From the sequence record MZ501089: DNA of 64,000 nt, one strand, 5' to 3'. The notes below the pieces were generated by a model, which was not told where the DNA came from, made no database searches, and worked only from the letters and a program-made list of their open reading frames with translations. Below are positions 3,955 to 41,096 of this stretch, piece by piece (the first letter of the stretch is position 1; every line of letters begins with the position of its first letter). This DNA comes from Escherichia phage KarlGJung. A program made the translations under genes and the position numbers.

Positions 3955-4280
3955 TTAAACCATCCTTTAATACGTTGCCATAAAGTTTTCTGTTGAGCTT
4001 TGTTAACACCAATTGAACGAATAACTGGTTGAGATTCCTGAAATTCTTTATAATCAGCAAGGTAAATTTCGTAAGCTGCATCCGTAAATGAACTTATCGC
4101 TGCCATAAAATTATTGCGAATACCTACTGGAGCATCTTTACTTTCACGAATAATCATGTATTTACCAGTCTTAATCTTTACGATAGTTCCAAGATAAGCT
4201 CCATGGTACCAGATGTCCCAACCCTCTTGAGTAGGTTCTACACAACGACGAAGTTCATTGACAATTTCTAACTTGTTCAT
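3951..4280 (-). CDS. Hypothetical protein, 109 aa (immediately downstream of motA)
   Basis: Track ORF; stop overlaps next start. Confidence 0.45.
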
Positions 4281-4290
4281 TATTTATTCC

Positions 4291-4926
4291 TCACAGTTCA
4301 GATGCTACAGTGATTACAGCTTCAATGTTTTCTGCCGAGCGTTTAATGTCAAGATACACATTACCGTTTTTAGCGATTTTACATGACATTCCGATATCAG
4401 TAAATTTCTGAATATGATGTTCCATCATTTTGTATCCAAAAATTCGCATATTTCCATTATTGTTAATTTCAAAATTACGAATTCCGTGAGTGCGTTTTTC
4501 TAAAATGGCAAGATAATTACTACGATAAGTTTCAACCTTTTTAAGAACAAATCCATTTTCATCTAAAAGTTTTAACATGAGGTCTTTATCTTCTTCCATA
4601 TCAGAAGTAATCTCACGAGCTTTACGAGTTGCTCGTTTTTTCAGTAGTTCCGGAGCATTTTCCTGCGCGTATAAAGTTGCTGCGTTTGAAATAATATCTT
4701 GAGCTTCACCTGTAATGATTAATCCATCACCAGATTTCTCCACCAGGCCTTTTTTAATCAATACCCCAATATTACTATTAACTACTGCGTTACCTAAATC
4801 TGGATGCACCTCACGAACTTCTGCAGCTGTAATGAAATCTTTCTTAGCAATGGTAATTAAAATCGCAGCAGTTTTTTCATTCAGAACATCGTTAGAAGCT
4901 TTGATGATGTAAGTTACTTTAGACAT
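4291..4926 (-). CDS. motA: Middle-transcription activator MotA
   Basis: 211 aa MSKVTYIIKASNDVLNEKTAAILITIAKKDFITAAEVREVHPDLG...; ATG start checked. Confidence 0.85.
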   Translation of the reverse strand: MSKVTYIIKASNDVLNEKTAAILITIAKKDFITAAEVREVHPDLGNAVVNSNIGVLIKKGLVEKSGDGLIITGEAQDIISNAATLYAQENAPELLKKRATRKAREITSDMEEDKDLMLKLLDENGFVLKKVETYRSNYLAILEKRTHGIRNFEINNNGNMRIFGYKMMEHHIQKFTDIGMSCKIAKNGNVYLDIKRSAENIEAVITVASEL

Positions 4927-4963
4927 TTTAATCTCCGTTTCAGTTCATTTATTTGATAGGTCT

Positions 4964-4992
4964 ATAGTATCATGTTTAAAGCAGAAGTAAAC
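4964..4992 (-). promoter_or_regulatory. Early promoter upstream of motA (GTTTAC-N17-TACTAT)
   Basis: gtaaac at 4987-4992 and atagta at 4964-4969 on + strand, i.e. -35/-10 on mRNA strand; AT-rich upstream. Confidence 0.55.
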
Positions 4993-5031
4993 ACTTTTTT
5001 GCACTCTTTTTCAAGAGCTCTAATAAAGTAC

Positions 5032-5259
5032 TTACTTAATGTTCAGATTACGAACTTCGATTTCGTCTTCATGGGCAAAATCAAACTGTTTGAATTCTGT
5101 GTCACCTTTAAATTTAAAAATCATTGTGAAGAAAGTCAGAACACCAGGTTTTTCTTCACGAACTCCACAGATATCATATTCAATACCATCTACAACCAGT
5201 TTGTTAGCAGTCAGAGCATTTTTAGCTTTAACGATTTCGTTTTCGATTTTAAATTTCAT
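5032..5259 (-). CDS. Hypothetical protein, 75 aa
   Basis: Track ORF with own early promoter and ATG start. Confidence 0.45.
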   Translation of the reverse strand: MKFKIENEIVKAKNALTANKLVVDGIEYDICGVREEKPGVLTFFTMIFKFKGDTEFKQFDFAHEDEIEVRNLNIK

Positions 5260-5308
5260 TTTTTGTATCTCCGGGTTGTTTGTTTCAGTTCATTTATTTG
5301 ATAGTTGT

Positions 5309-5338
5309 ATAGTACCACAGTATGCTTTGGTTGTAAAC
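5309..5338 (-). promoter_or_regulatory. Early promoter (GTTTAC-N18-TACTAT)
   Basis: gtaaac 5333-5338, atagta 5309-5314; upstream AT-rich tract. Confidence 0.55.
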
Positions 5339-5368
5339 CGTTTTGTGAAAAAATTTTTGAAATAAAAA

Positions 5369-5390
5369 AGGGAGAGCCGAGGCTCTCCCT
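5369..5390 (-). terminator. Intrinsic terminator hairpin followed by U-run on mRNA strand
   Basis: gggagagc-cgag-gctctccc stem-loop; mRNA continues tttttatt. Confidence 0.6.
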
Positions 5391-5394
5391 AAAA

Positions 5395-5544
5395 TTACTG
5401 CATGACTGTGATAACTGTCATGATAACACGTTGAATTCCGAACGCAAGAAGACCTCCTGCTACGGCAGGAACAACACCTAAACCCGCCAGTAAAATGCCA
5501 CCAGATACTAATGCAGCGCTTGTGATACCAATGAATGGACTCAT
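5395..5544 (-). CDS. 49 aa glycine-zipper membrane peptide (below track cutoff)
   Basis: Hand-translated MSPFIGITSAALVSGGILLAGLGVVPAVAGGLLAFGIQRVIMTVITVMQ; ATG overlaps gp52 TGA (ATGA); terminator follows. Confidence 0.45.
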   Translation of the reverse strand: MSPFIGITSAALVSGGILLAGLGVVPAVAGGLLAFGIQRVIMTVITVMQ

Positions 5545-6869
5545 TTGATTTCCTCTAAATCTTTGGTGTATTCTGTAACTACATCAGTAGTTTTCCAATA
5601 TTCGTTTTCTTCTTTTTTGGCTTTAGCTTCTTCAGCAAGTTTCTTTGCTTCGTCGGAAGTCATATGAAAAATGTTCATTCCAACTAGTTTATCAACATAA
5701 GAAGAATACATATCAATTTTAGAAAGTTCTTCGGTCAGTTCTTTGCGAGTTTTACCTTGTACAACAATTTCACCTGAAATTACTTTCTTAATGAAATGTG
5801 CCTTGGCAAAAGCTAAACGAAATGCTGATTCAGTTTCTTTGATTTTGTTATCAATTCGTTTTTGGACATAAGTTTTACGAACTTCAACGAAGTCTTTGAT
5901 TAAATCAACTACATTATCGTAAACTTGCAGCTTTCCTTTCTCATTAATGACGGTAATATTCTGGGAACGACGCTCAATCAACCCGAAGTCTTTCATAATT
6001 TTTGCATGGCGTTCTTCTTCATTATCGCTCAAAGAGTATTCTTTTCGGAATTTAACTTTGAAGCCAAAGCCATGCTCACCACAAGCATCATCCCATGTAA
6101 TGAAGCCTTTATCTTCAAGCGGGTCTAAGATTTTACTCACATAAGTTTCACGATCATACTTATATGGAATCTCAGTGATATGCATTTGAGTTCGTGAAGT
6201 AAACTTATATGTTCCACGAATTTCATATTGCCCATCAATTTCAACGACTTCACCACGAAATTCTGGGAATTCTACCTTCGGTTTAGTTACTTTCTTTCCT
6301 TGAAGAGCTTGCAGTACAGCTTTCTTGACAGAAGAAACACTATGAGGAAGAATGTAAGTTGCATAACCAGTTGCAATACCGGAAACGCCATTAAGAAGAA
6401 CAGTAGGAATAATAGGCAAATAGAAAGCAGGCGGAATGTGTTCTTTATCTTGATGTACTGGAGCATATTCAGTATCTTTATATACGTTATAGAAATTTTT
6501 ACTTACACGAGCAAAAATATAACGACTTGCTGCTGCCTTTTGGACAGTACGAGAACCAAAGTTTCCTTGACCGTCTAACAGAGGAAAGTTATTATTCCAA
6601 GTGTTAGCCATCAAAGCACCTGCGTCTTGCGCAGAGTTTTCACCATGATGATATCCAAGGTCCGCTACACCGCCTGCGATAGAAGCGAGTTTGTGAAACT
6701 TATCTTTATTTCCTCGTGCCAAATCAAGAGCTCGAGCAATAACAAATCGTTGAACTGGCTTAAATCCGTCAATCATATTTGGAATGGCACGATTTTCAAC
6801 CGTGTACATAGCATAAGCCAATGCTTCATTATCAATGATACTTTTTAAATCACGATTATTCAGTTGCAT
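5541..6869 (-). CDS. 52: DNA topoisomerase II medium subunit gp52 (GyrA-like)
   Basis: 442 aa; MQLNNRDLKSIIDNEALAYAMYTVENRAIPNMIDGFKPVQRFV...; active-site region ASRYIFA. Confidence 0.9.
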   Translation of the reverse strand: MQLNNRDLKSIIDNEALAYAMYTVENRAIPNMIDGFKPVQRFVIARALDLARGNKDKFHKLASIAGGVADLGYHHGENSAQDAGALMANTWNNNFPLLDGQGNFGSRTVQKAAASRYIFARVSKNFYNVYKDTEYAPVHQDKEHIPPAFYLPIIPTVLLNGVSGIATGYATYILPHSVSSVKKAVLQALQGKKVTKPKVEFPEFRGEVVEIDGQYEIRGTYKFTSRTQMHITEIPYKYDRETYVSKILDPLEDKGFITWDDACGEHGFGFKVKFRKEYSLSDNEEERHAKIMKDFGLIERRSQNITVINEKGKLQVYDNVVDLIKDFVEVRKTYVQKRIDNKIKETESAFRLAFAKAHFIKKVISGEIVVQGKTRKELTEELSKIDMYSSYVDKLVGMNIFHMTSDEAKKLAEEAKAKKEENEYWKTTDVVTEYTKDLEEIK

Positions 6870-6873
6870 AAAT

Positions 6874-7014
6874 TTACCATACTAGTGAATGTAGTGCCAT
6901 AATAACATCAGAAATGAAAAGCACGACTTGAATTAATCCGAACATTATTCCGTAATATAATGCTATCAATAAAATAGCAAGGGCTAATGAATAGCCCAAG
7001 ATTTTCTTAATCAT
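6874..7014 (-). CDS. 46 aa membrane peptide (below track cutoff)
   Basis: Hand-translated MIKKILGYSLALAILLIALYYGIMFGLIQVVLFISDVIMALHSLVW. Confidence 0.4.
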   Translation of the reverse strand: MIKKILGYSLALAILLIALYYGIMFGLIQVVLFISDVIMALHSLVW

Positions 7015-7165
7015 TAGTAGATAACAACACAAATGTTAAATATGCACACATACCCTGAGCTAAAGCTTGCGAAAACACACTGCTGGCATCAATACAGATA
7101 GTTAAAACACATGCTACTATCCAACAAATAAATGAAATAACTCCTAATAATTTTGCGATATTCAT
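7007..7165 (-). CDS. 52 aa membrane peptide in the position of T4 ac (below track cutoff)
   Basis: Hand-translated MNIAKLLGVISFICWIVACVLTICIDASSVFSQALAQGMCAYLTFVLLSTND; SD GAGG. Confidence 0.4.
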   Translation of the reverse strand: MNIAKLLGVISFICWIVACVLTICIDASSVFSQALAQGMCAYLTFVLLSTND

Positions 7166-7172
7166 ATTTTCC

Positions 7173-7253
7173 TCACTGGCGTCCGAAGACGCCTTTAGTT
7201 TTAAGATTATTACGATAGAACTGCATCACGTGTTCGTTGTGGAAATTACTCAT
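7173..7253 (-). CDS. stp: Stp peptide (26 aa; activator of host PrrC anticodon nuclease in T4)
   Basis: Hand-translated [26 protein letters not shown], matching recalled T4 Stp; TAATG overlap with ndd stop. Confidence 0.7.
7178..7193 (-). other. UUCG-tetraloop hairpin spanning the 3' end of stp
   Basis: ggcgtc-cgaa-gacgcc on + strand (loop UUCG on mRNA). Confidence 0.45.
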
Positions 7254-7711
7254 TAATACGCCTGCAAAACGAATTTAAAATTATCAGCCAACATACGGTT
7301 CATTTCTTCAAGTGTTTGATACTCAGAATGATGATTACGAGTAAACGCTAAAGCTAACTGTCCTTTTCCAAATCCCGTCGTCAGAGGTTTCATCTTAGAA
7401 GCAGGCAGATAAAATACTGTGTATACCATATTGTTATTTGCAATAGTACATGCAAGCTGAGACCGACGTTGACGAATATGACTTAGAACTGCACTGAATC
7501 CTTGCTTAGAACGCTGATTACCTACATAAAATCGTGCAGACACACATGGATTACTAAATGGACGACCATCTAATTTACTTACTAAAAAATAAAATCCAGG
7601 TTTAGATAAAATATCTTTATGCGGAGTTCCCAAAAACCACTCACCACCCTTGATTGTACCAATAACAGTAGCGCCTGCATTATTCAGATCAGTAACAGTC
7701 ATGTATTTCAT
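7253..7711 (-). CDS. ndd: Nucleoid disruption protein Ndd
   Basis: Track ORF 7253..7759 trimmed to internal ATG with SD GAGGA: [43 protein letters not shown]... Confidence 0.7.
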
Positions 7712-7771
7712 ATTAATTTCCTCTAAATTATTTTCTACTCCAAGGCCGCATGAATACACGCGGCCATTAAA

Positions 7772-7987
7772 TTAATCGTCGCAGTCGACGCTCAATTCCC
7801 AAAACTCTTCTACGGTATAAGTTTCAGTATCATTTTCAATACAGAAACGTTCATTACTGTTATTTGCTAAAGTAGCATTAACTGTCATTTTTTCGCTAGT
7901 GCTCTTAAGAGGTGAAATACGAATTAACTGATCACCGTTATCTAAACAAAAAATTTCACCAACTTTTACATCTTTAAAACTTTTCAT
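7772..7987 (-). CDS. Hypothetical protein, 71 aa
   Basis: Track ORF on early strand. Confidence 0.4.
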   Translation of the reverse strand: MKSFKDVKVGEIFCLDNGDQLIRISPLKSTSEKMTVNATLANNSNERFCIENDTETYTVEEFWELSVDCDD

Positions 7988-8102
7988 AATTCACCTCAAG
8001 GAGTATAAAATCCAAACGCAGTTGTTGACCATCCCATCCAATATGGAAAATTTGCACCAATGTAAAACATAAGAATATAAAACCAACCGCTCAGCAAATT
8101 CA

Positions 8103-8321
8103 TCATTTTACACCATTCCAAATTGTTTCAACCACGGATTTTAAACCATTTTGATGAATATCAATTCCGACTACTGTCATCAAATAGATTCCAACTACAA
8201 CTGAACCTAAGGCAAAAATCAGCATGAAAATGAATAAAGCCGGAAAAATATTATCGAAAAACCATTCAATAAATGTAAAAGCACTGCGTTTACGCTTCAT
8301 ATTTTCCTCACATAAATCCAA
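8103..8321 (-). CDS. Hypothetical small membrane protein (start uncertain)
   Basis: Track ORF with hydrophobic core FPALFIFMLIFALGSVVVGIYLMTVVGI. Confidence 0.3.
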   Translation of the reverse strand: MDLCEENMKRKRSAFTFIEWFFDNIFPALFIFMLIFALGSVVVGIYLMTVVGIDIHQNGLKSVVETIWNGVK

Positions 8322-8421
8322 AGTAAGCGTTTAATACATCAATCATTAAAACGATTGGGAATATACTCAAAACTACTAGTATTATAACTACATTCCATAT
8401 AGCTTTAACAATCTTTTTCAT
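8308..8421 (-). CDS. 37 aa membrane peptide (internal ATG of track ORF 8308..8556)
   Basis: MKKIVKAIWNVVIILVVLSIFPIVLMIDVLNAYFGFM; SD GGAGG; early promoter just upstream. Confidence 0.3.
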   Translation of the reverse strand: MKKIVKAIWNVVIILVVLSIFPIVLMIDVLNAYFGFM

Positions 8422-8449
8422 TTTCTGTTCCTCCGTAGTTGATAGGGTA

Positions 8450-8479
8450 ATAGTACCACGGAAGAACAGTCTTGTAAAC
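8450..8479 (-). promoter_or_regulatory. Early promoter (GTTTAC-N18-TACTAT)
   Basis: gtaaac 8474-8479, atagta 8450-8455. Confidence 0.5.
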
Positions 8480-8664
8480 AACTTTTTTAAAAATATTCGT
8501 AATAAATGTGAATACCAACTACTACCGCTGAAACCTGTGCAACCAACCACGCACAAGCAATAAGTACAGAATTCAAAATTTTCATAATAACCTCATTACA
8601 AAAGTAAATGTTAAACAAATTAATGGAATACTAATTAACCAAACAAAACACCACCATAATGAAC

Positions 8665-8928
8665 TCATAGTTCAATCTCAGCGATTTTCATTTCATTATT
8701 GTTAATAGCATTTTTAAGACTATCCGAAAGAATTACATTCCAGTGGTCATTCATATGACCATTAACTAAGCGTGTAATTTCTTCGGGAGTTGAAAAATAA
8801 GGCGTATCAGACTCCCAATGCGATAATCCTAAGCGAGTATAAATCATGCCTTCATCATCGCTAGAATATTCAACTGACACAAACTCATCAGTTATTTTAT
8901 GTTTAACGTAAAAGAACTTAAATTTCAT
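8665..8928 (-). CDS. Hypothetical protein, 87 aa
   Basis: Track ORF; SD GGAGG; early promoter upstream. Confidence 0.45.
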   Translation of the reverse strand: MKFKFFYVKHKITDEFVSVEYSSDDEGMIYTRLGLSHWESDTPYFSTPEEITRLVNGHMNDHWNVILSDSLKNAINNNEMKIAEIEL

Positions 8929-8956
8929 TTTCTGTTCCTCCGTAGTTGATAGTTGT

Positions 8957-8986
8957 ATAGTACCACGGTCCTTGTGGTATGTAAAC
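8957..8986 (-). promoter_or_regulatory. Early promoter (GTTTAC-N18-TACTAT) with a small hairpin in the spacer
   Basis: gtaaac 8981-8986, atagta 8957-8962; spacer contains ccac..gtgg inverted repeat. Confidence 0.55.
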
Positions 8987-9003
8987 TGTTTTATGAAAAT
9001 TTT

Positions 9004-9561
9004 TTAAATGGAAAGATACCATCCGCTGTAGTTGCTTTTTCTTACAACTTTACGAAGGTCTTCTCTGTCACCGATGAACTTCGGAGTGTACTGGATGACA
9101 CCTGGATGAATTTCTTTAGTGTTGAATATAATTATACAGTCGGCGACTTGATGATTTAGAATGGGCCCTAGATTTATTCCAGAACCATATTGATACTCTC
9201 CGCTGCATCCCGTTGTTACCGAAATCCAACGCGAGTCAGTTTGATGTGTCTTAACTTCTACGCGAAGCCCACAGTATTTTGGATGTGCTAAAACATCCCA
9301 TGCATATGTGTACGGATCATCGACATCTTCTTGGCCTTTATTGACATATCCGCTTAGCCAATCTGCCACGAAAAACTCGGCGTACACAGCGATACGGCAT
9401 CTTTCGATAACTTCTGCCTTATCCTGATTTGGGTTTTGTTTTAAAGAGTATCTTGCAGTATCAGCAATTTTGACCTTCATTTCACTAGTCAAGTCACTGT
9501 TCGATAGGGTAAATGACGGAATCTGAAATAGTCTCTGCAAACCCGGATTCGTTTTCTGCAT
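9004..9561 (-). CDS. denB: Endonuclease IV DenB-like
   Basis: 185 aa track ORF; size and position (between ndd block and rIIB) as T4 denB; sequence identity not verified. Confidence 0.5.
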   Translation of the reverse strand: MQKTNPGLQRLFQIPSFTLSNSDLTSEMKVKIADTARYSLKQNPNQDKAEVIERCRIAVYAEFFVADWLSGYVNKGQEDVDDPYTYAWDVLAHPKYCGLRVEVKTHQTDSRWISVTTGCSGEYQYGSGINLGPILNHQVADCIIIFNTKEIHPGVIQYTPKFIGDREDLRKVVRKSNYSGWYLSI

Positions 9562-9628
9562 TTAAACTTTCCTTTTATGTCTGAATCACTGGTATTCATA
9601 TAATAAATCATAATTTCTCTTAAAACAA

Positions 9629-9644
9629 AAGGGCCGAAGCCCTT
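9629..9644 (-). terminator. UUCG-tetraloop hairpin / probable terminator
   Basis: aagggc-cgaa-gccctt, T-rich flank. Confidence 0.5.
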
Positions 9645-9647
9645 ATT

Positions 9648-9842
9648 TTATTTGAATTGTGCAATTCTTTTCTCTAGACATTCAGCATAAGATTTCATTG
9701 AGATGAACTGTGAAAGTAGCAGTTCTTGCTCAACTGCACTAACTGTTAGAAACTTTGCGCTTTCTAAAAATTTACTCAGTGCATTAATTTTGAGCATTAA
9801 TTGATCGTATTCTTCTTTTACTCGTGCTTGATAACCTAACAT
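9648..9842 (-). CDS. Hypothetical protein, 64 aa (rIIB-distal)
   Basis: Track ORF; SD AAGGAA. Confidence 0.4.
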   Translation of the reverse strand: MLGYQARVKEEYDQLMLKINALSKFLESAKFLTVSAVEQELLLSQFISMKSYAECLEKRIAQFK

Positions 9843-9856
9843 AATTTTCCTTAGTT

Positions 9857-9872
9857 AAGGGCCGAAGCCCTT
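9857..9872 (-). other. UUCG-tetraloop hairpin overlapping the rIIB stop codon
   Basis: aagggc-cgaa-gccctt. Confidence 0.5.
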
Positions 9873-10809
9873 ATTTAAATTGTTCAGTAACGTCTTCAAC
9901 TACTTCGTATTGGCAGGTACGCATTTTAGCATCGTTGTAATCAATCGGAATTGATACTACATCACGCGGATGTACTTTAACTTTTACGACTAGGCTGGTT
10001 GAACTGCCAAAGTGACGAATATAAGATTTAGAACACACATGCAGACCACGAGAACAAGTTTGTGTATCATCGTCATTCACACGAGTACGTGGCATTTTAA
10101 CTACTTTACCCGGACTGTTATCAAAGGTGTTTGAGTGACAGTCAAAGTAATTGCTGCGAACTACTTTCCAAGCATAGAAGTAACCATCTTCTGTAATTTC
10201 AATATCGTTTGCTACCAAGAAATCAAAGAGTCGAGATACCGCTTTTTGGCTTGGGTTTTCCAGCAGATTTTCCAAGAACGGAAAATAAAATTCAAAGTTT
10301 TCGCCTTTTTCCATCGAGTCAAGAATACGATCAACCAAACCAGACCGCAATTCGATATTTTGATAGAACAAGCTTCCACCTTCAATTCGAACATCGCCGG
10401 AAATATATTTTTCAACAGCACGGCGAACATTAATTTTTTGTGCAGCTTCTTCCAGCTTATCCGCTACAAGCAGATTAAGAATTTCCTGGAAGTTTGAATG
10501 AGTATTAGGAGTTGCGTTATAAGTTACACCGTCAACAGTAATTGAAATGAATTTTTTAGATGCATTCCAAATAATGTCAGATTTAGCAACTGGAGCAATA
10601 ACTGCATCGCTATTAACTTTAACTGTAATATCACCGCTAATAGTAACTTTAGGGCGTTTAGCTTCTTCAGCATTTTTCAAAACACGACGGATTGTGTCAA
10701 CCGATACATCCTTCCAATAAGCTAATTCCTGTTGGGTATAATTACCACTTGAATACAGTTTAACAATTTCAGCTTGTTCGTTTTTGGTCAGGCATTTAAT
10801 ATTGTACAT
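9871..10809 (-). CDS. rIIB: rIIB protein
   Basis: 312 aa MYNIKCLTKNEQAEIVKLYSSGNYTQQELAYWKDVSVDTIRRVLKN...; follows rIIA. Confidence 0.85.
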   Translation of the reverse strand: MYNIKCLTKNEQAEIVKLYSSGNYTQQELAYWKDVSVDTIRRVLKNAEEAKRPKVTISGDITVKVNSDAVIAPVAKSDIIWNASKKFISITVDGVTYNATPNTHSNFQEILNLLVADKLEEAAQKINVRRAVEKYISGDVRIEGGSLFYQNIELRSGLVDRILDSMEKGENFEFYFPFLENLLENPSQKAVSRLFDFLVANDIEITEDGYFYAWKVVRSNYFDCHSNTFDNSPGKVVKMPRTRVNDDDTQTCSRGLHVCSKSYIRHFGSSTSLVVKVKVHPRDVVSIPIDYNDAKMRTCQYEVVEDVTEQFK

Positions 10810-10820: not shown

Positions 10821-12998
10821 TTAGGCCGCAAGGGCCTTCATAGTTTTAGCGATTTGGGAAACTTCATCATCACTTAAAGAGTTGCGATAACCGATGAAGT
10901 CGGAAACAATACGGAATTTCTTGGTAAACTCAGCAACCATTTTATCACTATTTTTTGAAGCATTACGTGATAATTCATCAAAAAGATTAGTTACCGTCCA
11001 GATGTCATGACCGATGGTATCTTTTCCACCATTAAAATATACACCGCGCAATGAACTAACTATATTAGCGAGTCGTGTATATTCTTCAGAAACTTCATCT
11101 GTACTGAAGTACTTCATCATAAAATCTAGTTCAGGATGCTTGATAATTTTATCAATATATCGTTGAGCTGAACTTGAATAACCTACATACTTATCATAAT
11201 CTACATCATCAAAAGCATCTACATATAAATCACGCAAAGCTTCAAAAATACATTGGCACTGACCGAGCTCTTTTACCTTTTTCTGCAAAAGCGGACGAAT
11301 AACATAAAATTCATTAATGCCAATAAGATTAGCCATACGAATCAAAATATTCATAGATGGATGACAAAGCGATGTAGTACCATCCATAGAGAAAATATCA
11401 GAACGATGCATATACGCTACATAACCAGTAATTTCATCTGCTTCTGACGTAAGTGTAAATAGTTCCTCTTTTTCCCAGCGCCCGTCTTTAATTTCAAACT
11501 TAAATGCTGTAGCAGCTTTAGGACGAGGAGCTTTACTTTTAACTACCTTTGGAATATAACTTTTTACTAAAGCTTCAATTTCTGACAAATAGTGAATGTT
11601 AACTTCATCACTTTCAAACATCGCCATAATATCAGGGAGTAAATCAATCTGCGATTCTACTTCCGGATTAATAAACAGAAGACGCTCATTGTGATGAATA
11701 TTTAAAGTGTTATTAAATTCACTATCATCTAACGCATGTGCTAATCCACGGACAATATTAACACGATTTTTAATATTATCAATAACGATATTAATTTTTG
11801 TTGTATTAATACCAAACAGACGATAACTTGATGCAACGGCTGAAGTTTCATGACTTTGCTTAATACGCTTCAGTCGAGGGTCAAGATTTACTTCATACAC
11901 AACCCCTGCATTGCATAGCTTACTGTCAGGTTCAAACATGCTCTGCATTTTCTTATATGACAGATTTTTAGTCGTGAATTTGACTGAATTACTAATCATA
12001 TAATCTCGAGCAGAATACCCCATCTTCATCAATTCACGATATGTATGACGAGGAGATGTAGATTCTTTAAATCGTTTTACATCTTCATTAAATGCTTTCT
12101 CACTAAGCTCTTTAACTCGTTCAATAATATTTTTACGAGTACGATCATCCAATGAAAGAGCTTCACGTGATGGAGCAATATCAAGTGAACCCATTGGAAA
12201 CTTAATGTAATTTACTTCATTGCGAATGCTTAGCCAGTTACGGTCTCTAATAACACCATCGATAGGATAAACAATACCGCCATAGATAGCATATAATCCA
12301 CCACGATCTGGCCAGTATCTTTCTGGATTTACACCGTAATAGTCATCAAAATCCGGAAAATAATCAATTTCGCGGTCAAGACCATTAATGATAGCCAAAT
12401 CTTTGAACGGTCGCATGATATAAGAAACTTCATAAGCAAAGTTTCTAAAGTCTTTTTCTTCAACTGGAACTACGATTTCAATACCAGTTTTATCATCTGG
12501 ACCCATTTCTTTCACGAATGTAGGTTTAATTTGTGGACCATCGCCATCCATGTAAGCTACATAACCACGAATTTCACCTTTATGATACGAAGTAATACTA
12601 AATGTATCAGTATAACTAAACGGAGATTTAGAACCTAAACCAAATCCGCCAATGAAATCGTTAGATTCAGCCTTAGATGAACTGAAGTATGAATTATACA
12701 AACCAGGAGAATTATCATCACCCTGAATATCAAAATCACTCATACCCGGACCAAAATCTCGACAAACAAATCGCGGATCTAATCGTCCTGGAACTTGTAT
12801 GATAAATTTTTCAGGATTTCCATTAAGTGCATGGGCATCAATCATATTAGTAATTAATTCACGGACTACTGCACGAATCTTGTTTGTATACAAATCAGAT
12901 GACAGAATTTTAAATACTTTAGGAGATGCTGTGATGCTAAATGCTTTTGATTTAGAACCATTGCCAAGAATTGTTTCTTTTTCAGTGGTGATAATCAT
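10821..12998 (-). CDS. rIIA: rIIA protein
   Basis: 725 aa [56 protein letters not shown]... (GHKL-type ATPase-like N-terminus). Confidence 0.9.
10823..10837 (-). other. GC hairpin between rIIA and rIIB
   Basis: aggcc-gcaag-ggcct. Confidence 0.4.
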
Positions 12999-13008
12999 AA
13001 TTTCCTCA

Positions 13009-13212
13009 TTAATTCATATTACGCTTAATAACTTCAGCAACTTCTAGTAATTCATCTTTAGTTGCAGTGTCGGATTGAATTTTATCTCTAATATCTTTAA
13101 AGCGGTTTTTAAATTCTTCGGCTTCTCCCATATCGAAAAAGCGTTGAATGATTCTATATTCTCGATGAACTGCTTTATCAAAAAGTTCTAAATTTACTTT
13201 ATATGATTTCAT
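13009..13212 (-). CDS. rIIA.1-position hypothetical protein, 67 aa
   Basis: Track ORF with ATG start and early promoter upstream. Confidence 0.5.
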
Positions 13213-13237: not shown

Positions 13238-13267
13238 ATTATACCACATCCTTGTGGTAAAGTAAAC
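13238..13267 (-). promoter_or_regulatory. Early promoter (GTTTAC-N18-TATAAT) with spacer hairpin
   Basis: gtaaac 13262-13267, attata 13238-13243; spacer accacatccttgtggt. Confidence 0.55.
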
Positions 13268-15084
13268 TACTGGCTCATCCATTCTTTACGAAGGTCAGCA
13301 TTATCTCCCATGAGCATTTCAAAAAGCTCTTTCCAGTTCTCAGGAAGTTTAACAACATCATATACTGGATTTTGAATCATCTCACGATATTCAGATTTTT
13401 CCAAAGAGCCAAGTCCTTTAATATAACGGATGCTATGTTTAGGTAGAGCATCTTTAGCACTCTCATATTCAGCGACTGTATAAAACCATTCTTGTTTTTT
13501 ACCGACCTGAGCGATGATTACAGGAGTTTTGACAAAACGAATTCTTCCTTGCTCAAACAGTTCTGGCCAATTACTAAAAAACCCGAGCAGAGAAGGATAA
13601 ATGCTTCCTAGACCATCATGGTCAGCATCAGTCATAATAGCAATATTATGATAATTCAAGTTTTCAGCTTTTTCACCGAGAACTAATCCAGTGATTGCGC
13701 AAATATCAAATAGTTCTTTGTTTTTAAGCATATCTGCATAAGACATACCCCAACTGTTGAGAACTTTACCGCGCAATGGATAACCACCGTGAAGTTCTTT
13801 ATCACGAACATCAATAAGATATCCGATAGCCGAATCACCCTCAGTCAAGAAAAGAGTAGTGTCAGCATCTTTACCACAAAGATTCGCTTTGATATGTTTA
13901 TGAACCTTAGCTTTAGAAGCCTTTTTAGCTGCTTTAGTTTCTGCTGCTTTTTCTGCCGCCAATTTACGAGCCAAAGCAGCTTCAATAATCGGCATTAGAA
14001 TTGCTTCATTATTTAGAATAGCGCGTGAAATCTTTTTAGCATCAAGTTGAATATGACTACGAATTTCGCCAAATGGAGAAGTCAAACGCTCTTTAGTTTG
14101 AGAATCAAATCGCATGTTTTTCATATCACGAACAAACATAACGATAGTCAAACATTCTTTAACACGCGCTTTAGTTACATCAATTTTGAACTTACGTTTG
14201 ATTTGTGGAATAAGGTCTTCACAAATATCATCCATAACACAGTCAATGTGATGGCCACCATTCTTAGTGTGAATGTTATTGACGTATGTTAATTGACGAA
14301 AACCATCCGGTGAACGACCAACCGCAATAGAACAATTTTCTTGTTCTTGAACAATAGCATGCTCATCATATTGGCGTGCATATTTCTTAAAATTGCCCTG
14401 AACCTTTTTACCATTAAAGGTAAATTGAATATCAGGATAAACTACTGCAAGTGTCTGGAGACGATCTAGTGTAATGTCAAGATAAACTTGGGACAGCTCA
14501 TTAGTTTCAAATGACATAAAATCAGGAATGAAAGTAACACGAGTTCCTTTCCATTTTCCAGGAATAGTTTCCCATGATTTATTTTCCATGCCATTTGAAC
14601 AACGAACTACAATATTATTTTGACCATCACCAGTTTCACCGACAAACATCACAGAAAAAATGTTTGTCAAACTAGAACCAACACCATTCATACCGCCAGT
14701 GACGCGTTCTTTATCATCACCGAAGTTACCACCTGCTTTTGGAATAGTCCATGCAGCAACAGGACCAGGAATTTCTTCACCGGTAGGTGTTTTAACCATC
14801 GCCTGCGGAATACCACGACCGTTATCTTCAACTGTTACTTGATTGTTTTTAATAGTAACATTAATTTTATTTGCGAATTTAAACTTAGTACGAATACCTT
14901 CATCTACTGAGTTATCGATAATTTCATCAATAAGCTTAACAAGACCAGGTACATACTGAACACTTTCCCATTTACCAAACAGAAAGCGCTCATGCATTTC
15001 ATTAGCAGAAGAGCCAATATACATGCCGCTACGCTTTTTGATATGTTCAATATCGCTCAGAATTTTAATTTCATTCTTAATCAT
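13267..15084 (-). CDS. 39: DNA topoisomerase II large subunit gp39, contiguous GyrB-like ATPase plus Toprim (no gene 60 split)
   Basis: Track ORF 606 aa from GTG; ATG one codon in gives 605 aa; GHKL motifs (VEDNGRGIP), Toprim (LFLTEGDSA), C-terminal region continuous. Confidence 0.9.
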   Translation of the reverse strand: MIKNEIKILSDIEHIKKRSGMYIGSSANEMHERFLFGKWESVQYVPGLVKLIDEIIDNSVDEGIRTKFKFANKINVTIKNNQVTVEDNGRGIPQAMVKTPTGEEIPGPVAAWTIPKAGGNFGDDKERVTGGMNGVGSSLTNIFSVMFVGETGDGQNNIVVRCSNGMENKSWETIPGKWKGTRVTFIPDFMSFETNELSQVYLDITLDRLQTLAVVYPDIQFTFNGKKVQGNFKKYARQYDEHAIVQEQENCSIAVGRSPDGFRQLTYVNNIHTKNGGHHIDCVMDDICEDLIPQIKRKFKIDVTKARVKECLTIVMFVRDMKNMRFDSQTKERLTSPFGEIRSHIQLDAKKISRAILNNEAILMPIIEAALARKLAAEKAAETKAAKKASKAKVHKHIKANLCGKDADTTLFLTEGDSAIGYLIDVRDKELHGGYPLRGKVLNSWGMSYADMLKNKELFDICAITGLVLGEKAENLNYHNIAIMTDADHDGLGSIYPSLLGFFSNWPELFEQGRIRFVKTPVIIAQVGKKQEWFYTVAEYESAKDALPKHSIRYIKGLGSLEKSEYREMIQNPVYDVVKLPENWKELFEMLMGDNADLRKEWMSQ

Positions 15085-15136
15085 CACTTATCCTCGTTTG
15101 GTTTCGGGAATATTATACTCCAGTAATCATAAAGCT

Positions 15137-15154
15137 AAAGGCCCGAAGGCCTTT
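15137..15154 (-). other. UUCG-tetraloop hairpin upstream of gene 39
   Basis: aaaggcc-cgaa-ggccttt. Confidence 0.5.
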
Positions 15155-16621: not shown

Positions 16622-16891
16622 TTAATTGAACAGTGGAGCGATGCGTTTCAGAAGAGTAGCAGCACCTTTGGCAAATTTTACATCATGAAAAACAGTTTCT
16701 TCTTCCGTTACAACACGAGCTTTAATGTTTTCACAATCCCAATTTTTGCGAACAATCTTCAAAAGCTGCAGTAAATCTTTACATTCAGCAATATCGATAA
16801 CACATCCACGAGAATCTTCCATTATCGCACGATAACCGTAAGCCATACCATAATCATTAAAAGATTGCTCGATGATAATTAAGTTTTCCAT
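16622..16891 (-). CDS. Hypothetical protein, about 89 aa
   Basis: Track ORF 16622..16903 trimmed to internal ATG behind the shared leader ggagaataaaATG. Confidence 0.4.
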   Translation of the reverse strand: MENLIIIEQSFNDYGMAYGYRAIMEDSRGCVIDIAECKDLLQLLKIVRKNWDCENIKARVVTEEETVFHDVKFAKGAATLLKRIAPLFN

Positions 16892-16988
16892 TTTATTCTC
16901 CAAGTTATTTTCTGTATCAGTAGTTGATATTGATATAGTACCATAATCAACTACTGATGTATATAGTTTTATGAAAAAATTTTAAACT

Positions 16989-17480
16989 TTATGCATAGCG
17001 AGCTTTGCTGTAGTGTTTAATCCAACTTTCAGGAATGACTTTGTATGTTCCTAAAAATACCGCGTTGTATAACTTAACGCCATCTTCTACCCATTGATCG
17101 GTAATGTATGCACACATAGCGCGAGTACGGTTAACAACACCTTCCTCACCTTCAGTAAATTCAAACTCATAAGGAGCAACGAACTTGATAGCTTGACCGA
17201 GTTTCCACTTAAAGTCTACACCTACATGCGAAGTATCAATCGTTTCAATTCCTTTAGCGGGAACAGCTTTCAAAAACGCAGGCTCAAGAAATTTCCATCG
17301 AACATAACCAAACTGAGGTTTAGACATTCCATCTTTAGGAATGATACGCACTTTTACTTCAGAATCTTCATCTTTAACACCATGTTTAAGCTGAATGCTT
17401 ACGACTTCAACCAATTTTCCTGCTGCCTTAGAACGGGATTTATCAGATACACGAGCAATTTCACCGATATTAATATTCAT
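16989..17480 (-). CDS. motB: MotB-like protein
   Basis: 163 aa; size and position between the 39 block and dexA as T4 motB; sequence identity not verified. Confidence 0.5.
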   Translation of the reverse strand: MNINIGEIARVSDKSRSKAAGKLVEVVSIQLKHGVKDEDSEVKVRIIPKDGMSKPQFGYVRWKFLEPAFLKAVPAKGIETIDTSHVGVDFKWKLGQAIKFVAPYEFEFTEGEEGVVNRTRAMCAYITDQWVEDGVKLYNAVFLGTYKVIPESWIKHYSKARYA

Positions 17481-17553: not shown

Positions 17554-18054
17554 CTAGCTTACACGAACATTAATCACTGCGCTGCGAGGAACTACAGAGT
17601 ACTCTCCAGCATGAACTACATTAAGAAGTTCAACGCCATCTTCAACCCACTGGTCAGTTACCCAACCGCCAACCGGATTCGCGAATGGACGACGAATATA
17701 AACTGCCTTACACAACAAATCAGTCGGGTCTTCAATTTTTTCAACTGGTGTTACATACATAGAAACTAAATCCATATCAATATGGGATTTTTCTTGTTCT
17801 TCTTTTTCAATTTCTGTCAATAAATTGAAATCTTCTTCATAGATGATGAATGATGATACCCTTCCATAATAGTTTCTAATTTCCATGTACACTGTACCAA
17901 TGAGAATTCCGCTATTAACACTAATAACAGTAAAAGGATATCCGCCAGTTGTACCAAGAAGTTCCCAAAACTTGCTATCAGTCGTATTCGACATTGTCTG
18001 GAAATCAATTTCAGATGGTTTTTTCATTTGATACGTAGTATTAATTTTAATCAT
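17554..18054 (-). CDS. MotB paralog (shared C-terminal domain)
   Basis: 166 aa; C-terminal WVTDQWVEDGVELLNVVHAGEYSVVP matches MotB YITDQWVEDGVKLYNAVFLGTYKVIP. Confidence 0.5.
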   Translation of the reverse strand: MIKINTTYQMKKPSEIDFQTMSNTTDSKFWELLGTTGGYPFTVISVNSGILIGTVYMEIRNYYGRVSSFIIYEEDFNLLTEIEKEEQEKSHIDMDLVSMYVTPVEKIEDPTDLLCKAVYIRRPFANPVGGWVTDQWVEDGVELLNVVHAGEYSVVPRSAVINVRVS

Positions 18055-23149: not shown

Positions 23150-23769
23150 TCAACTACCTCAATATCATACACTTTAAATGTTCCAAATGAATCGTGTAAT
23201 TTTTCTTTTGAAATAGAAGTTATTCTATACTTTCCAATTGGAATCATCCATTCTTGTTCACGCACAATCATCATTAAGTTATCAGTACGCTCTGAATCTA
23301 ATCCATCAGTATCTTCATATGTATACTTAAATTCAGTATTAGGAGAAGAAAGTATAATATCGCTGATATGGTCAGAATAATTAAAAGCTTTATCAGTTTT
23401 TAAGCGAAATATTATTTCAGTGAAATACTCAACATAAGAAAAACCACATGCTGTGTGCAAACTAGTAGTAAATGAATCTACTCTGTTCGTTGAAAACACT
23501 TCTCCGACTTGTAAATCTTTAATGAGTTCTTTTGTCGATTTTGATATACCACGATATAGCTGATAAGGCGATTTAGTTAAATGCTTTTTAACGATTTTAT
23601 TCAACTGCCGATGAAGAGCTTCATTCTTTTTGGCTTCCATACACTGCCAAAGAACTGACTGTTCAAAGTCAGTAAATTTTTCACAGACCTTTTTGTACAT
23701 ATCATATTGAAAATCAACACTTTCAGCTTTTATAGATAACTGTTCAACATCTGCGAGATTAATAATCAT
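23146..23769 (-). CDS. modB: ADP-ribosyltransferase ModB
   Basis: Track ORF 23146..23781 trimmed to internal ATG with SD GGAGG (207 aa); LYRGIS, STN, EQEWMIP motifs; stop overlaps modA ATG. Confidence 0.65.
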   Translation of the reverse strand: MIINLADVEQLSIKAESVDFQYDMYKKVCEKFTDFEQSVLWQCMEAKKNEALHRQLNKIVKKHLTKSPYQLYRGISKSTKELIKDLQVGEVFSTNRVDSFTTSLHTACGFSYVEYFTEIIFRLKTDKAFNYSDHISDIILSSPNTEFKYTYEDTDGLDSERTDNLMMIVREQEWMIPIGKYRITSISKEKLHDSFGTFKVYDIEVVE

Positions 23770-26257: not shown

Positions 26258-26265
26258 TATTTATA
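26258..26265 (-). promoter_or_regulatory. Late promoter TATAAATA for soc
   Basis: tatttata on + strand = TATAAATA on mRNA strand, about 30 nt upstream of the soc ATG. Confidence 0.6.
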
Positions 26266-26295
26266 ATAAATTCTCGCGGCTTTTAAGACGAGCTG

Positions 26296-26814
26296 TTAAT
26301 AACCTCGGTCTTGACGAACGAAATTTTCAGCATTTTTCAGATAATAAAGTTTAAAGATTTCTTCTGCTGTAAGACCAAGACCTTGAAACATGTTCAGAAC
26401 AAAATGGAGAATATCAATCATTTCGAATTTGATTTCTAACTGGTCCTGTGGAGACAAATCAGTAATCAGAGTTTCACGACGTTCACCATGCTGAGCTTTC
26501 CACGGCTTCCATACAGCAGATGCATCTTTTTCGCCATTGCTCATACCACCAAGAGAAGTCAGAAGTTCGCGGAATTCATCATCAATATAATCTTTCTGAT
26601 TACGCAGCCAATCAACAACTTCACCTGCAGTAGCCAAATCATCAGGATGACGGTTATATTCAGGTTTATCTTTAGCTAAACGAATCTGCAGAGATTTCTG
26701 CATGTCAAGCATTACCTGCAGCGGGTCTTTTTCATCACCGAGAATATCCCAATATTCATTTTGAGCTTTATCAGCGCCTTCGATCAGTTGACTACATTCG
26801 TTAAAGTAAGCCAT
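26296..26814 (-). CDS. 56: dCTP pyrophosphatase gp56
   Basis: Track ORF 26296..26829 (TTG) trimmed to ATG: MAYFNECSQLIEGADKAQNEYWDILGDEKDPLQVMLDMQ... Confidence 0.85.
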   Translation of the reverse strand: MAYFNECSQLIEGADKAQNEYWDILGDEKDPLQVMLDMQKSLQIRLAKDKPEYNRHPDDLATAGEVVDWLRNQKDYIDDEFRELLTSLGGMSNGEKDASAVWKPWKAQHGERRETLITDLSPQDQLEIKFEMIDILHFVLNMFQGLGLTAEEIFKLYYLKNAENFVRQDRGY

Positions 26815-27667: not shown

Positions 27668-27862
27668 TTATTGCAGCAAAAAAAATGAATTATACAATTC
27701 ATCATCATATGTATTTGATAGTAATACTAACACGTTTTGCGATTTAGCATATTCATTAAACCTCGCCTGAATAGTTGGATTATCAGTAAATGATTCTCTT
27801 TTTGTCCATTTATTACGTGGATAATATCCGCATGGTAAAAAATCTAATATCATCCTCAGCAA
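27668..27862 (-). CDS. Hypothetical protein, about 61-64 aa (start uncertain)
   Basis: Track ORF begins at TTG; ATG three codons in; early promoter upstream. Confidence 0.3.
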   Translation of the reverse strand: MLRMILDFLPCGYYPRNKWTKRESFTDNPTIQARFNEYAKSQNVLVLLSNTYDDELYNSFFLLQ

Positions 27863-27880
27863 TTTATTTTATAATACCAT

Positions 27881-27910
27881 AACAAGCTGAAAAAGTAAAC
27901 AAATTTATGA
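27881..27910 (-). promoter_or_regulatory. Early promoter (GTTTAC-N18-TATTAT)
   Basis: gtaaac 27905-27910, ataata 27881-27886. Confidence 0.5.
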
Positions 27911-27944
27911 AATTTGTGATAAATATTAATTTAAAGGAGGACAT

Positions 27945-32341: not shown

Positions 32342-33515
32342 TAAATTCTTCCATATCACTTAGCTGATCTAGGTCAGTTTCTAAATCAGCAGCTGATTTA
32401 CTTTTACTTTCTGGAGATTTAAATTTTTCAACCTTTGAGTTAATCAATTCATCAACTTCAGCTTCAACAATTTCATTACTATCAATAGCACCTAACTGAT
32501 AAGCACGTTTAATAGCATCTCGGAATGGTTGATGCTTAAATAAAGGACCCCAGAATGTAGTGCAGTTGGTATCTTTTGCACGCCAAGATTTTTCTTCGCG
32601 AATCATCTCACCGGTTTCTTCATCAAGAAATTCACGGGCATACCAGCCATTTTTAGGTTTTACTACAAATCCTAATTCTAGAGCCATATCTAACAATCCA
32701 GAATAAGGATCGATACCACCGTCAAATTTAACATCAATAAAGAATTTACTTTTTTCTTTAACGGTACGAGATTTTTCTACATTTAGAACAAATTGATACC
32801 CCTGAAGATCAGAACCATCTTTAATTTGACGTTTACCGATAATGAATACAGTATCAGCCGAATACATTACGCCTGTACCGCCTGTCATCACGGTTTTACT
32901 AAACATTTCAATTGTTTCAATTGTATGGTTAACCGCAACGCACGGAATATTTTTAATGCTAAAGTAAGGAGTAACAATACGGAATAATGACTTCAGTGAT
33001 TTAGCACGAGTCATATCTGCCACAGATTTTTCATTCAAGGCATCTTCCGTTTCTTTCTTAGAAGCCATATTACCAATTGAGTCGATGAATACTATAACCT
33101 TTTCACCACGCTCAATAGCTTCAAGCTGATTCACCATATCAATTTTCAGCTGTTCAACTGATTGAATTGGCGTATGAATTACACGTTCCGGGTCAACTCC
33201 CATGGATCGCAAATAAGCTGGAGTAATACCAAATTCGCTATCATAGAATAGACAAACCGCGTCAGGATATTTGTTCAAATATGCCGCAACCATAGTCAAA
33301 GACATATTTGATTTAAAGTGTTTAGAAGGCCCTGCGAAAATAGTTAAACCAGACTGCATACCGCCATCAATCGCACCAGAAATAGCAATATTAAGCATTG
33401 GAATTTTTGTACGAATTACATCCTTTTCATTAAAGAATTTAGATGTAGTCAGTTCAGCAGTCATTTTAGAAGTGGAAGCTTTAATCAAACGGGATTTTAA
33501 ATCTGCAATAGACAT
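32334..33515 (-). CDS. uvsX: UvsX recombinase (RecA-like)
   Basis: 393 aa MSIADLKSRLIKASTSKMTAELTTSKFFNEKDVIRTKIPMLNIAISGAIDGG...; Walker A GPSKHFKS. Confidence 0.9.
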   Translation of the reverse strand: MSIADLKSRLIKASTSKMTAELTTSKFFNEKDVIRTKIPMLNIAISGAIDGGMQSGLTIFAGPSKHFKSNMSLTMVAAYLNKYPDAVCLFYDSEFGITPAYLRSMGVDPERVIHTPIQSVEQLKIDMVNQLEAIERGEKVIVFIDSIGNMASKKETEDALNEKSVADMTRAKSLKSLFRIVTPYFSIKNIPCVAVNHTIETIEMFSKTVMTGGTGVMYSADTVFIIGKRQIKDGSDLQGYQFVLNVEKSRTVKEKSKFFIDVKFDGGIDPYSGLLDMALELGFVVKPKNGWYAREFLDEETGEMIREEKSWRAKDTNCTTFWGPLFKHQPFRDAIKRAYQLGAIDSNEIVEAEVDELINSKVEKFKSPESKSKSAADLETDLDQLSDMEEFNE

Positions 33516-33592
33516 TCATTTTTTCCATAGGCATCATTATATTTTCCTCACTGGTTAAAGATAGAGTAATTATAACACAATAAATTTAGGCA

Positions 33593-35975: not shown

Positions 35976-36212
35976 TCAAATGCAAGTAGTAATTACTCCA
36001 GTAGTGCTTATGCAGGTATTACCCATTTGCACACCTAAAGATCCATTTGTATTCACATGAAGATTATCATCAATTTTAACTGATATTTTACCATTAGTGT
36101 GAATAACGGTGCTAGATTCAATCACAGGTTGAGTATCATTTTCAACACTAACAAATGGAACTGCTGCTAATGCAACTAAACAAACTGCTAAGCATCCCAT
36201 AACAATTTTCAT
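35976..36212 (-). CDS. Small secreted/membrane protein, about 78 aa
   Basis: Track ORF 35976..36224 (TTG) trimmed to ATG; signal-like MKIVMGCLAVCLVALAAVPFVSV. Confidence 0.4.
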   Translation of the reverse strand: MKIVMGCLAVCLVALAAVPFVSVENDTQPVIESSTVIHTNGKISVKIDDNLHVNTNGSLGVQMGNTCISTTGVITTCI

Positions 36213-36246
36213 TTTATTCTCCAAATCCGTATTAGTTGATAGTTGT

Positions 36247-36276
36247 ATAGTACCATGGAAGAACAGTCTTGTAAAC
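36247..36276 (-). promoter_or_regulatory. Early promoter (GTTTAC-N18-TACTAT)
   Basis: gtaaac 36271-36276, atagta 36247-36252. Confidence 0.55.
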
Positions 36277-36362
36277 AGTTTTGTGAAAATTTTTTAGGGA
36301 ATTCTAAAGGTCCAGAATCATCTGTTTTTCATAAGTATAGATTTATATTACTTGTATGAAAA

Positions 36363-41062: not shown

Positions 41063-41096
41063 AATTTCCTCATTCAAGTTTTAGTGTAAATTATAA

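Follow-up and report, generated by a model that had tools for sequence, protein, structure and literature searches.

In T4 and its Yersinia relative PST, early promoters accompanied by a stem-loop (PeSL) have been described as a motif with a characteristic architecture and a link to insertions and deletions (indels), with the ndd region as one of the worked examples (Comeau, Arbiol & Krisch 2014, PMC4122927). These units combine an AT-rich region, a promoter with the consensus TTTACW-N17-TAYWAT, a Shine-Dalgarno (SD) sequence and an ATG, have a stem-loop just upstream, and are associated with indels and gene swaps in hyperplastic regions. Their description followed work on RB49 and phi1, in which tandem similar promoter modules flank small open reading frames (ORFs) (Arbiol et al. 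2010, PMC2839356). Here, we analyzed a 64,000-nt stretch of Escherichia phage KarlGJung (record MZ501089; the whole stretch is called the window below) and focused on positions 4925-5392, the interval between motA.1 and motA. A preliminary description of the window had read this interval as one of several PeSL-like promoter-leader cassettes reused in front of unrelated genes. The label is apt: KarlGJung belongs to the same genus, the published T4/PST consensus is the motif that we find, and the AT-rich region, promoter, SD and ATG, the association with indels and gene swaps, and the involvement of the ndd region are all held in common. We conclude that the repeats are T4-type early (sigma-70) promoter modules, predicted from their sequence to be active in KarlGJung, and that they most probably serve as paralogous homology patches for the gain, loss and swap of small accessory genes, that is, for PeSL-type shuffling. 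This is the correct recognition of a known phenomenon and, because that phenomenon has already been published for T4 and PST, its novelty is low. Since the concept is published for the genus, the value of the present case lies in the effect size, in a cargo gene that can be traced, and in a RegB signal in the leaders. The text of PMC4122927 does not mention the motA/ORF75 case, the distribution of ORF75 over three loci or a link between GGAG and RegB.

The modules differ from the described systems in several respects. Unlike the T4/PST units, only 3-5 of the 20 promoters have an upstream stem-loop. In RB49, the promoters are near-perfect TTGACA/TATAAT with G/C-rich stems, whereas those in the window are of the T4 GTTTAC type. 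Mini-circles and promoter and terminator activity were shown experimentally in RB49 and phi1 (PMC2839356); here, the corresponding activities are predicted.

The window comes from a Tequatrovirus (T4-like) phage. It corresponds to an extended block of early and middle genes, read from the minus strand, and is colinear with T4 160.2-168.9 kb and then T4 1-56.4 kb. The 5.5 kb around 4925-5392 are 99.4% identical to Yersinia phage PYps14T, and hundreds of Tequatrovirus genomes match them at 95-99% identity. Breakpoints were mapped by comparing the window with T4, T2 and RB32. In all three phages, a single unit of terminator, T-run, UP element, promoter and leader lies between motA.1 and motA, ahead of motA. 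The window has this same terminator and promoter (5309-5389), but after them come a different leader, ORF75, a second promoter, a leader and motA, arranged as follows.

5370-5389, minus strand: predicted intrinsic terminator hairpin GGGAGAGCC-tcgg-GGCTCTCCC, the top terminator match (free energy, dG, -16.7), conserved in T4
5309-5369, minus strand: early promoter P5338, with a T-run/UP block at 5339-5369, the -35 GTTTAC at 5333-5338, an 18-nt spacer and the -10 TACTAT at 5309-5314
5260-5308, minus strand: leader of ORF75 with the SD GGAG; its first 27 nt lie within the direct repeat D7 (5282-5317)
5032-5259, minus strand: cargo gene ORF75, 75 aa, PHROG 10955 (function unknown)
4964-4992, minus strand: second early promoter P4992, GTTTAC-N17-TACTAT, lacking the TG motif; ahead of motA and within the inserted segment
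4927-4972, minus strand: -10 and leader of motA, with the D7 copy 4937-4972 and the SD GGAGATTAAA
4291-4926, minus strand: motA coding sequence, 211 aa

The hairpin, with its T-run at 5360-5369, is predicted to end the gene 52/motA.1 transcript. The upstream unit at 5309-5389 is a complete PeSL; the downstream one at 4964-4992 is not, P4992 having only a weak AGAGCTCT palindrome. P5338 is the ortholog of the T4 motA promoter, yet it precedes ORF75 in the window. The motA leader matches that of ORF75 over the first 27 nt, and the extra segment of 345 bp is flanked by the 36-nt direct repeat D7 (4937-4972 and 5282-5317, 92% identical), which spans the -10 and the start of the leader. A recombination event at 4925-5392 would have inserted ORF75 together with a second promoter-leader, thereby separating motA from its ancestral promoter.

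ORF75 is absent from T4, T2 and RB32, and its presence is polymorphic among phages: about 137 phage records carry it at 95% identity or more, and about 500 records cover the motA region. A homolog in Karamvirus CkP1 (64% amino acid identity) lies between nrdC.11 and nrdC.10, the same interval that holds the look-alike module 62370-62466 of the window. Another homolog, in a Klebsiella phage (70% amino acid identity), adjoins an ORF89-like gene. ORF75 is a traceable cargo: its homologs occupy three loci in three groups of T4-like phages, each time with similar promoter-leaders on both sides.

To place this locus among the other early promoters, we consider the whole set. The pattern GTTTAC-N17-19-TAYWAT has 18 strict matches in the window, all on the minus strand, and shuffled sequences lead one to expect 0.13. 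The spacing of 18 nt given in the preliminary description holds for 17 of these; the remaining one (4964-4992) has 17 nt. Adding a degenerate site (ATATAC at 16964) and a relaxed match brings the number of promoter sites to about 20, each with an SD and ATG 25-60 nt downstream and most with an UP-like aaaaWtttttCACAAAAc upstream of the -35. GTGG or ATGG directly precedes the -10 in 13 of 20 promoters, and a TG before the -10 was flagged for P5338, P8479 and P8986. The module as a whole comprises an UP element, GTTTAC, a spacer of 18 nt whose last bases are often GTGG, TAYWAT, a leader of 25-50 nt and a GGAG-type SD. T4 early promoters likewise combine TAnnAT, preceded by a GT-rich stretch, with GTTTAC at -36 to -31 and an UP-like region rich in A (Hinton 2010, PMC2988021; Nolan et al. 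2006, PMC1524935). They too lie upstream of early genes, and the window promoters are their orthologs: 16 of 19 have a near-identical T4 counterpart ahead of the same gene. There is no difference in kind; what is added here is that subsets share spacers and leaders beyond the consensus. For promoter detection in this DNA the T4-specific pattern alone is informative. A generic sigma-70 scan of 4000-10000 gave no enrichment (19 matches vs 21.4 in shuffles), because matching to TTGACA/TATAAT is uninformative in AT-rich DNA. An Rfam scan of the whole window found no family at gathering score, indicating that the leaders are not a known RNA element. A possible collapsed promoter is present at 27743-27800 and at T4 17650-17711, where an UP-like TCGCAAAAC and then GTGTTAG are joined spacerless to TATTACTATCAAATA; 'half PeSL' remnants similar to it have been described for PST.

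Unrelated genes share the same promoter-leader, both inside the window and when phages are compared. The further early promoters and modules that bear on this are listed here.

8419-8479, minus strand: P8479 and leader 1, ahead of a 37-aa ndd.4-type gene
8926-8986, minus strand: P8986 and leader 1, with a 6-bp inverted repeat in the spacer, ahead of ORF87 (8665-8928)
13238-13267, minus strand: rIIA.1 promoter with the 7-bp spacer palindrome TACCACA/TGTGGTA; 32 nt identical to 57976-58007
16891-16997, minus strand: promoter whose -35 is degenerate (ATATAC), with a leader resembling leader 2, ahead of ORF89 (16622-16891)
27871-27900, minus strand: early promoter P27900, upstream of dam
36210-36309, minus strand: P36276 and leader 2, ahead of ORF78 (35976-36212), itself inserted before imm.1
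57976-58005, minus strand: nrdC.4 promoter with a 7-bp spacer palindrome
60918-60978, minus strand: P60978 and leader 1, ahead of a 175-aa nrdC.8-type gene; spacer shared with P8479 and P36276
62351-62465, minus strand: complete PeSL upstream of nrdC.10 (P62417), with hairpin, UP block, promoter and leader 2

The P8986 slot holds leader 2 without a gene in T4, leader 1 with ORF87 in the window, and an unrelated 68-aa ORF in T2 and RB32. Of the two junctions, the left one directly follows the shared post-10 block ACAACTATCAACTAC and the right one is at the SD/ATG. At the P36276 slot, T4 and RB32 continue directly with imm.1 and lack ORF78, and T2 has an unrelated 83-aa ORF instead. ORF89 is internally deleted in T4 and RB32. 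The dam promoter P27900 lies wholly within a 170-nt segment that is absent from T4, and the T2 and RB32 junctions are inside or adjoin the module. At P17554, a 980-bp deletion in T2 begins at the -35. The nrdC.10 PeSL consists of a hairpin (62448-62465), a T-run/UP block (62418-62447), a promoter with the palindromic spacer CATAAAGCTTTATG (62388-62417) and leader 2 (62351-62372). Here, T2 has a 568-bp cassette inserted at 62401-62450 with a 50-nt overlap (a duplicated block): the nrdC.11 terminator tail and UP block stand on both sides of a 161-aa ORF, and the insert has its own promoter core and its own terminator. Relatives do break at promoter sites of this kind, with junctions at 4972/5295, 8693-8944, 16884, 17555, 27847-27934, 36199-36206 and 62401-62450. 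The four cargo ORFs (75-89 aa) match only PHROG families of unknown function, and none has a PHROG match to a known homing-endonuclease family. Many such accessory genes are probably host-takeover or anti-defence factors. The 161-aa ORF of T2 (EcT2_00098) is weakly similar to window 23233-23655 (25% over 142 aa, E=1e-8), which by collinear position, not mapped gene by gene, apparently lies in the modA/modB ADP-ribosyltransferase region.

To put numbers on these junctions, we removed nine that were attributed to homing endonucleases or an intron (mobA, segF, segA, mobB, mobC, I-TevII and others), leaving 26 distinct events. Between 9 and 10 of the 26 end inside a promoter module, and the modules make up 3.8% of bases (P ~7e-5 to 9e-6); 8-9 of the 20 modules carry a junction relative to T4, T2 or RB32. 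A null based on base coverage is too lenient, since indels have to lie at gene boundaries to be viable. The stricter null used equal-sized intervals at all 117 called gene starts (20 promoter-bearing, 97 other). Against it, junctions were found at 9 of 20 promoter boundaries vs 20 of 97 others (odds ratio (OR) 3.15, p=0.026), a contrast that is significant only once the homing-endonuclease events are removed. In terms of effect size, about a third of the rearrangements that do not involve homing endonucleases involve a promoter module, with an OR of 2-3 over other boundaries.

The modules also resemble one another more than a common promoter consensus accounts for. Leader 1 (27 nt) is present as exact copies at 8419-8445, 8926-8952 and 60918-60944, and leader 2 (22 nt) at 36210-36231 and 62351-62372. 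These are the recurrences reported earlier at about 8419, 8925 and 60918 and at about 36210 and 62351, all of them exact. With as many as 3 mismatches allowed, neither leader has an additional copy in the window; leader 2 has a partial third one at 16873-16903 (family D9). A recurrence of the module 5275-5392 at about 62370-62466 is confirmed, but 'nearly verbatim', as it was first put, overstates an identity of ~83% over 95 nt: the T-run, UP block, -35, -10 and the 14 nt after it are identical, and the differences lie in the terminator stem and the 18-nt spacer. Scanning IMG/VR for exact copies of the leaders yielded 4 and 7 loci, numbers that do not allow statistics, and confirmed three cargos per leader. 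Blocks are shared in different combinations. One spacer is common to P8479, P36276 and P60978; leader 1 to P8479, P8986 and P60978; leader 2 to P36276 and P62417; and the T-run/UP block to P5338 and P62417. We compared this similarity with a null in which each alignment column was permuted among the 20 promoters, keeping the consensus, and counted as near-identical any pair with at least 75% identity. There were 4 such pairs in the 18-nt spacer (0.04 expected), 18 in the 14 nt after the -10 (1.0 expected) and 8 in the 20 nt before the ATG (0.4 expected). The repeats accordingly extend beyond the promoter hexamers into flanks, spacers and leaders, in line with the preliminary description. Collectively, the excess similarity and the mosaic sharing of blocks argue that the modules are paralogs and not merely convergent sites.

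The leaders share a further signal. Among minus-strand genes at 2300-63900, GGAG is present in the SD window of 13 of 19 promoter-led genes vs 5 of 99 others (OR ~41, p=2.5e-9). GGAG in early translation initiation regions is the target of the T4 RegB endoribonuclease, with GGAGRAYARAA as the consensus of strong RegB/S1 sites, and is required, though not enough on its own, for cleavage (Uzan & Miller 2010, PMC3014915). As at those sites, GGAG lies in the SD of early genes here. Leader 2, GGAGAATAAAA, fits the consensus exactly, at every position, and the motA leader fits it at six of the seven positions after GGAG; RegB cleavage in KarlGJung is predicted. The portable leader probably also carries a RegB shut-off signal, and the portable unit as a whole probably combines insulation with immediate-early transcription, translation and rapid shut-off by RegB. 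The GGAG/RegB link is not mentioned in the text of either PeSL paper (PMC4122927, PMC2839356), although the general association of early genes with GGAG is already established.

Several results weigh against assigning the modules this role in shuffling, and we consider them together. When all junctions are counted, promoter boundaries stand at 9 of 20 vs 27 of 97 for other boundaries (OR 2.1, p=0.11), and the enrichment over other gene boundaries, with an OR of 2-3, is modest. About 16 of the 26 events lie at promoter-less boundaries or inside genes; these non-promoter events are boundary insertions with 5-9 nt of microhomology (AATTATG, ATTAA), in-frame indels, or a case in which 50 nt of a gene 3' end are repeated. 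A strong hairpin with a T-run directly upstream is found only for P5338, P25939 and P62417 (dG -12.7 to -16.7). At the motA locus, the predicted product of D7 recombination has no single-piece match of at least 99% among 50,697 phage records, and the best empty motA alleles are 95.5% identical to it and have a different, T4-type motA leader. The ORF75 event therefore did not consist of simple integration at a known empty site, of which those 50,697 records contain no exact example; relative to a known genome, neither simple excision nor simple integration is supported. Finally, orthologous promoters are almost identical across the four genomes, so that much of the identity between paralogs could be explained by old duplication and purifying selection. 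Consistent with this, a search for concerted evolution of paralogous leaders found that orthologs in the four genomes differ only by scattered points, and ongoing conversion was not demonstrated. Promoter modules are a real but not dominant route of rearrangement.

Part of this evidence fits a moron-type accretion, in which a gene arrives with its own promoter by illegitimate recombination at any boundary, selection keeps the insertions that are not disruptive, and promoters are passengers. Lambdoid morons (Hendrix et al. 2000, via PMC2839356) are also single accessory genes, with their own promoter and terminator, between resident genes. The many microhomology indels at promoter-less boundaries, the weak enrichment, the T2 insert that brings its own promoter core and terminator, and the missing ORF75 empty site all speak for such a process. 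However, the homology at promoter junctions is far longer (36-50 nt) than elsewhere, and P8986 and P36276 keep the resident promoter, only the leader and gene being exchanged. ORF75 homologs, moreover, have matching promoter-leaders on both sides at three loci. Morons lack conserved flanks and are often antisense, whereas the cassettes in the window are co-oriented and flanked by homologous promoter blocks. We consider accretion of this kind unlikely as the general explanation.

The similarity of the modules could also reflect pure functional convergence, with RNA polymerase, ribosomes and RegB selecting the same optimum and recombination playing no role. T4 early promoters do have an unusually long consensus that extends beyond the hexamers to an UP element, a TGn-like stretch and 'additional regions' in addition to the -35 and -10 (PMC2988021, PMC1524935). 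GGAG is strongly enriched in promoter leaders, and the high conservation of orthologous promoters in four phages indicates purifying selection. Yet the composition-preserving column null still leaves a large excess of near-identical pairs in spacers and leaders, the modules draw on shared blocks in mosaic fashion, indels and swaps have their junctions within those blocks, and inserted genes are flanked by direct repeats. Convergence by itself is, in our judgment, quite improbable.

We therefore favor the reading in which paralogous promoter modules act as homology patches. This rests on the module sequences, their excess similarity, the positions of the junctions and the polymorphism among phages. 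Each unit would be a self-contained early-expression cassette: the terminator would insulate it, the promoter would fire immediately on infection, and the GGAG leader would provide translation and, probably, RegB-mediated shut-off. A minority of modules would be immediately preceded by the upstream unit's intrinsic terminator. Because the modules are paralogous and share long blocks, they would place homology patches of 15-50 nt at many gene boundaries. Recombination in the UP/T-run, -10/post-10 or SD/ATG block could then insert, delete or swap small genes and leave expression intact. The mechanism may be homologous recombination, with or without mini-circles; in RB49, crossovers mapped from mini-circles fall in the AT-rich region or in the stretch from the -10 to the ATG (PMC2839356) and match the junction zones observed here. 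Candidate tandem recombining pairs are the two copies of D7 (4937-4972/5282-5317, 345 nt apart) and of the direct repeat D2 (8417-8483/8924-8990, 507 nt apart). The preliminary description had proposed mobile regulatory cassettes that drive modular shuffling. It had also named two outcomes that would speak against it, repeats confined to the promoter hexamers and relatives free of gene-order breakpoints at these sites; neither was observed. Shared flanks and breakpoints at these sites support the PeSL-type interpretation, and a driving role is suggested by the junction positions. Promoter, leader and sometimes terminator would together be both an expression unit and a homology patch, and the window offers a quantified example of how T4-like phages may add or exchange small accessory genes with neighbouring expression undisturbed.

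Stem-loops are found at a subset of the modules. Weaker or more distant upstream terminators precede P27900 and P50327. Inverted repeats of at least 5 bp are present in the spacers of 5 of 20 promoters, compared with 1.1-1.5 expected (P ~0.005), and three of the five belong to one sequence family. The ccac..gtgg hairpins first noticed at 8963-8977, 13243-13258 and 57983-57998 are present and prove to be longer than stated, with 6-7 bp. The repeat at 8957-8986 is TACCAC/GTGGTA (6 bp), and those at 13238-13267 and 57976-58005 are TACCACA/TGTGGTA (7 bp) and 100% identical over 32 nt. All are perfect inverted repeats, TACCAC(A)..(T)GTGGTA, that overlap the -10. Similarly, the stem-loop in RB49 most often lies between the -35 and -10 or overlaps the -10 (PMC2839356). 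About 10 of 20 promoters have neither an upstream terminator nor a spacer inverted repeat, and from these counts about half of the sites are plain early promoters. The spacer repeats at 13238-13267, 57976-58005, 8957-8986 and 62388-62417, which overlap the extended -10, might be operators for the still-unidentified factor that shuts off T4 early promoters 2-3 min after infection, rather than PeSL-style stem-loops or chance occurrences; we regard this as very unlikely. A separate family of terminator-hairpin repeats, D4 (AAAGGGCCGAAGCCCTT), is present at 9612-9645, 15121-15154, 45789-45822 and 49428-49461, and one of its copies, at 9629-9644, has a terminator score on both strands.

Site-specific recombination by a dedicated recombinase acting on the stem-loop or a fixed core, as at att sites or in integron cassettes, is scarcely credible: Arbiol et al. 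(PMC2839356) speculated that the stem-loop is a protein target and the GenBank record of T2 annotates attL and attR at two of these leaders, but junction positions vary (UP/T-run block, post-10 block, SD/ATG, -35), the T2 'att' sites are a shared 20-nt leader sequence, TATCAACTACTGATACAGAA, most promoters have no stem-loop, and the T4, T2 and RB32 gene tables for the region list no integrase-like gene, the window proteins not having been screened. With no fixed core crossover, an att/integrase cassette was rejected. In the T2 record (AP018813.1), 'attL' and 'attR' at 6093-6112 and 158300-158319 are this same sequence, which is common to the motA and ORF89 (cef-upstream) leaders, and their annotation is a prophage-finder artefact; they do not mark an attachment site. 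In practical terms, prophage tools mis-annotate leader repeats as att sites.

Involvement of homing endonucleases at the promoter-associated junctions was also rejected: none of the cargo PHROG families is a known homing-endonuclease family, and the endonuclease indels (mobA, segF, segA, mobB, mobC, I-TevII) lie elsewhere. The window lacks the T4 homing endonuclease genes mobA, segF, segA, mobB and mobC and the I-TevII intron, and differs from T4 in this respect at 13602-13667, 26265-26296, 33503-34450, 47014-47039, 51515-51535, 52811-52814 and 63482. Because the alignment to T4 ends at 63482, where T4 mobD starts, mobD is probably absent from the window as well. The absent mobA/60.1 segment lies within a would-be single gene 39+60, as in T2 and RB32.

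Other repeats and insertions were found apart from the early promoters. Repeat D6 (46 nt, 83% identity; 12965-13010 and 41029-41074) covers, on the minus strand, the SD, the ATG and the initial codons of two different genes, away from any early promoter. Genes 49 and pin are separated by an extra small ORF (53850-54140) that T4 and T2 lack; it is flanked by a direct repeat of ~50 nt of a gene 3' end (…CAATATAAGCGATTGCATCAAATGTTTTATAATACTTGAAAAA…), a promoter-independent insertion mediated by repeats. Two further observations concern the promoters themselves. The T2 ndd.4 promoter has a patch, cctctgtggTATTAT, that is typical of the nrdC.8 promoter 50 kb away, and an IMG/VR contig (179-250) has a mosaic promoter ahead of an nrdC.8 gene with an ndd.4-type post-10 block. 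These are the only two hints, suggestive as they are, of short ectopic exchange between paralogous promoters.

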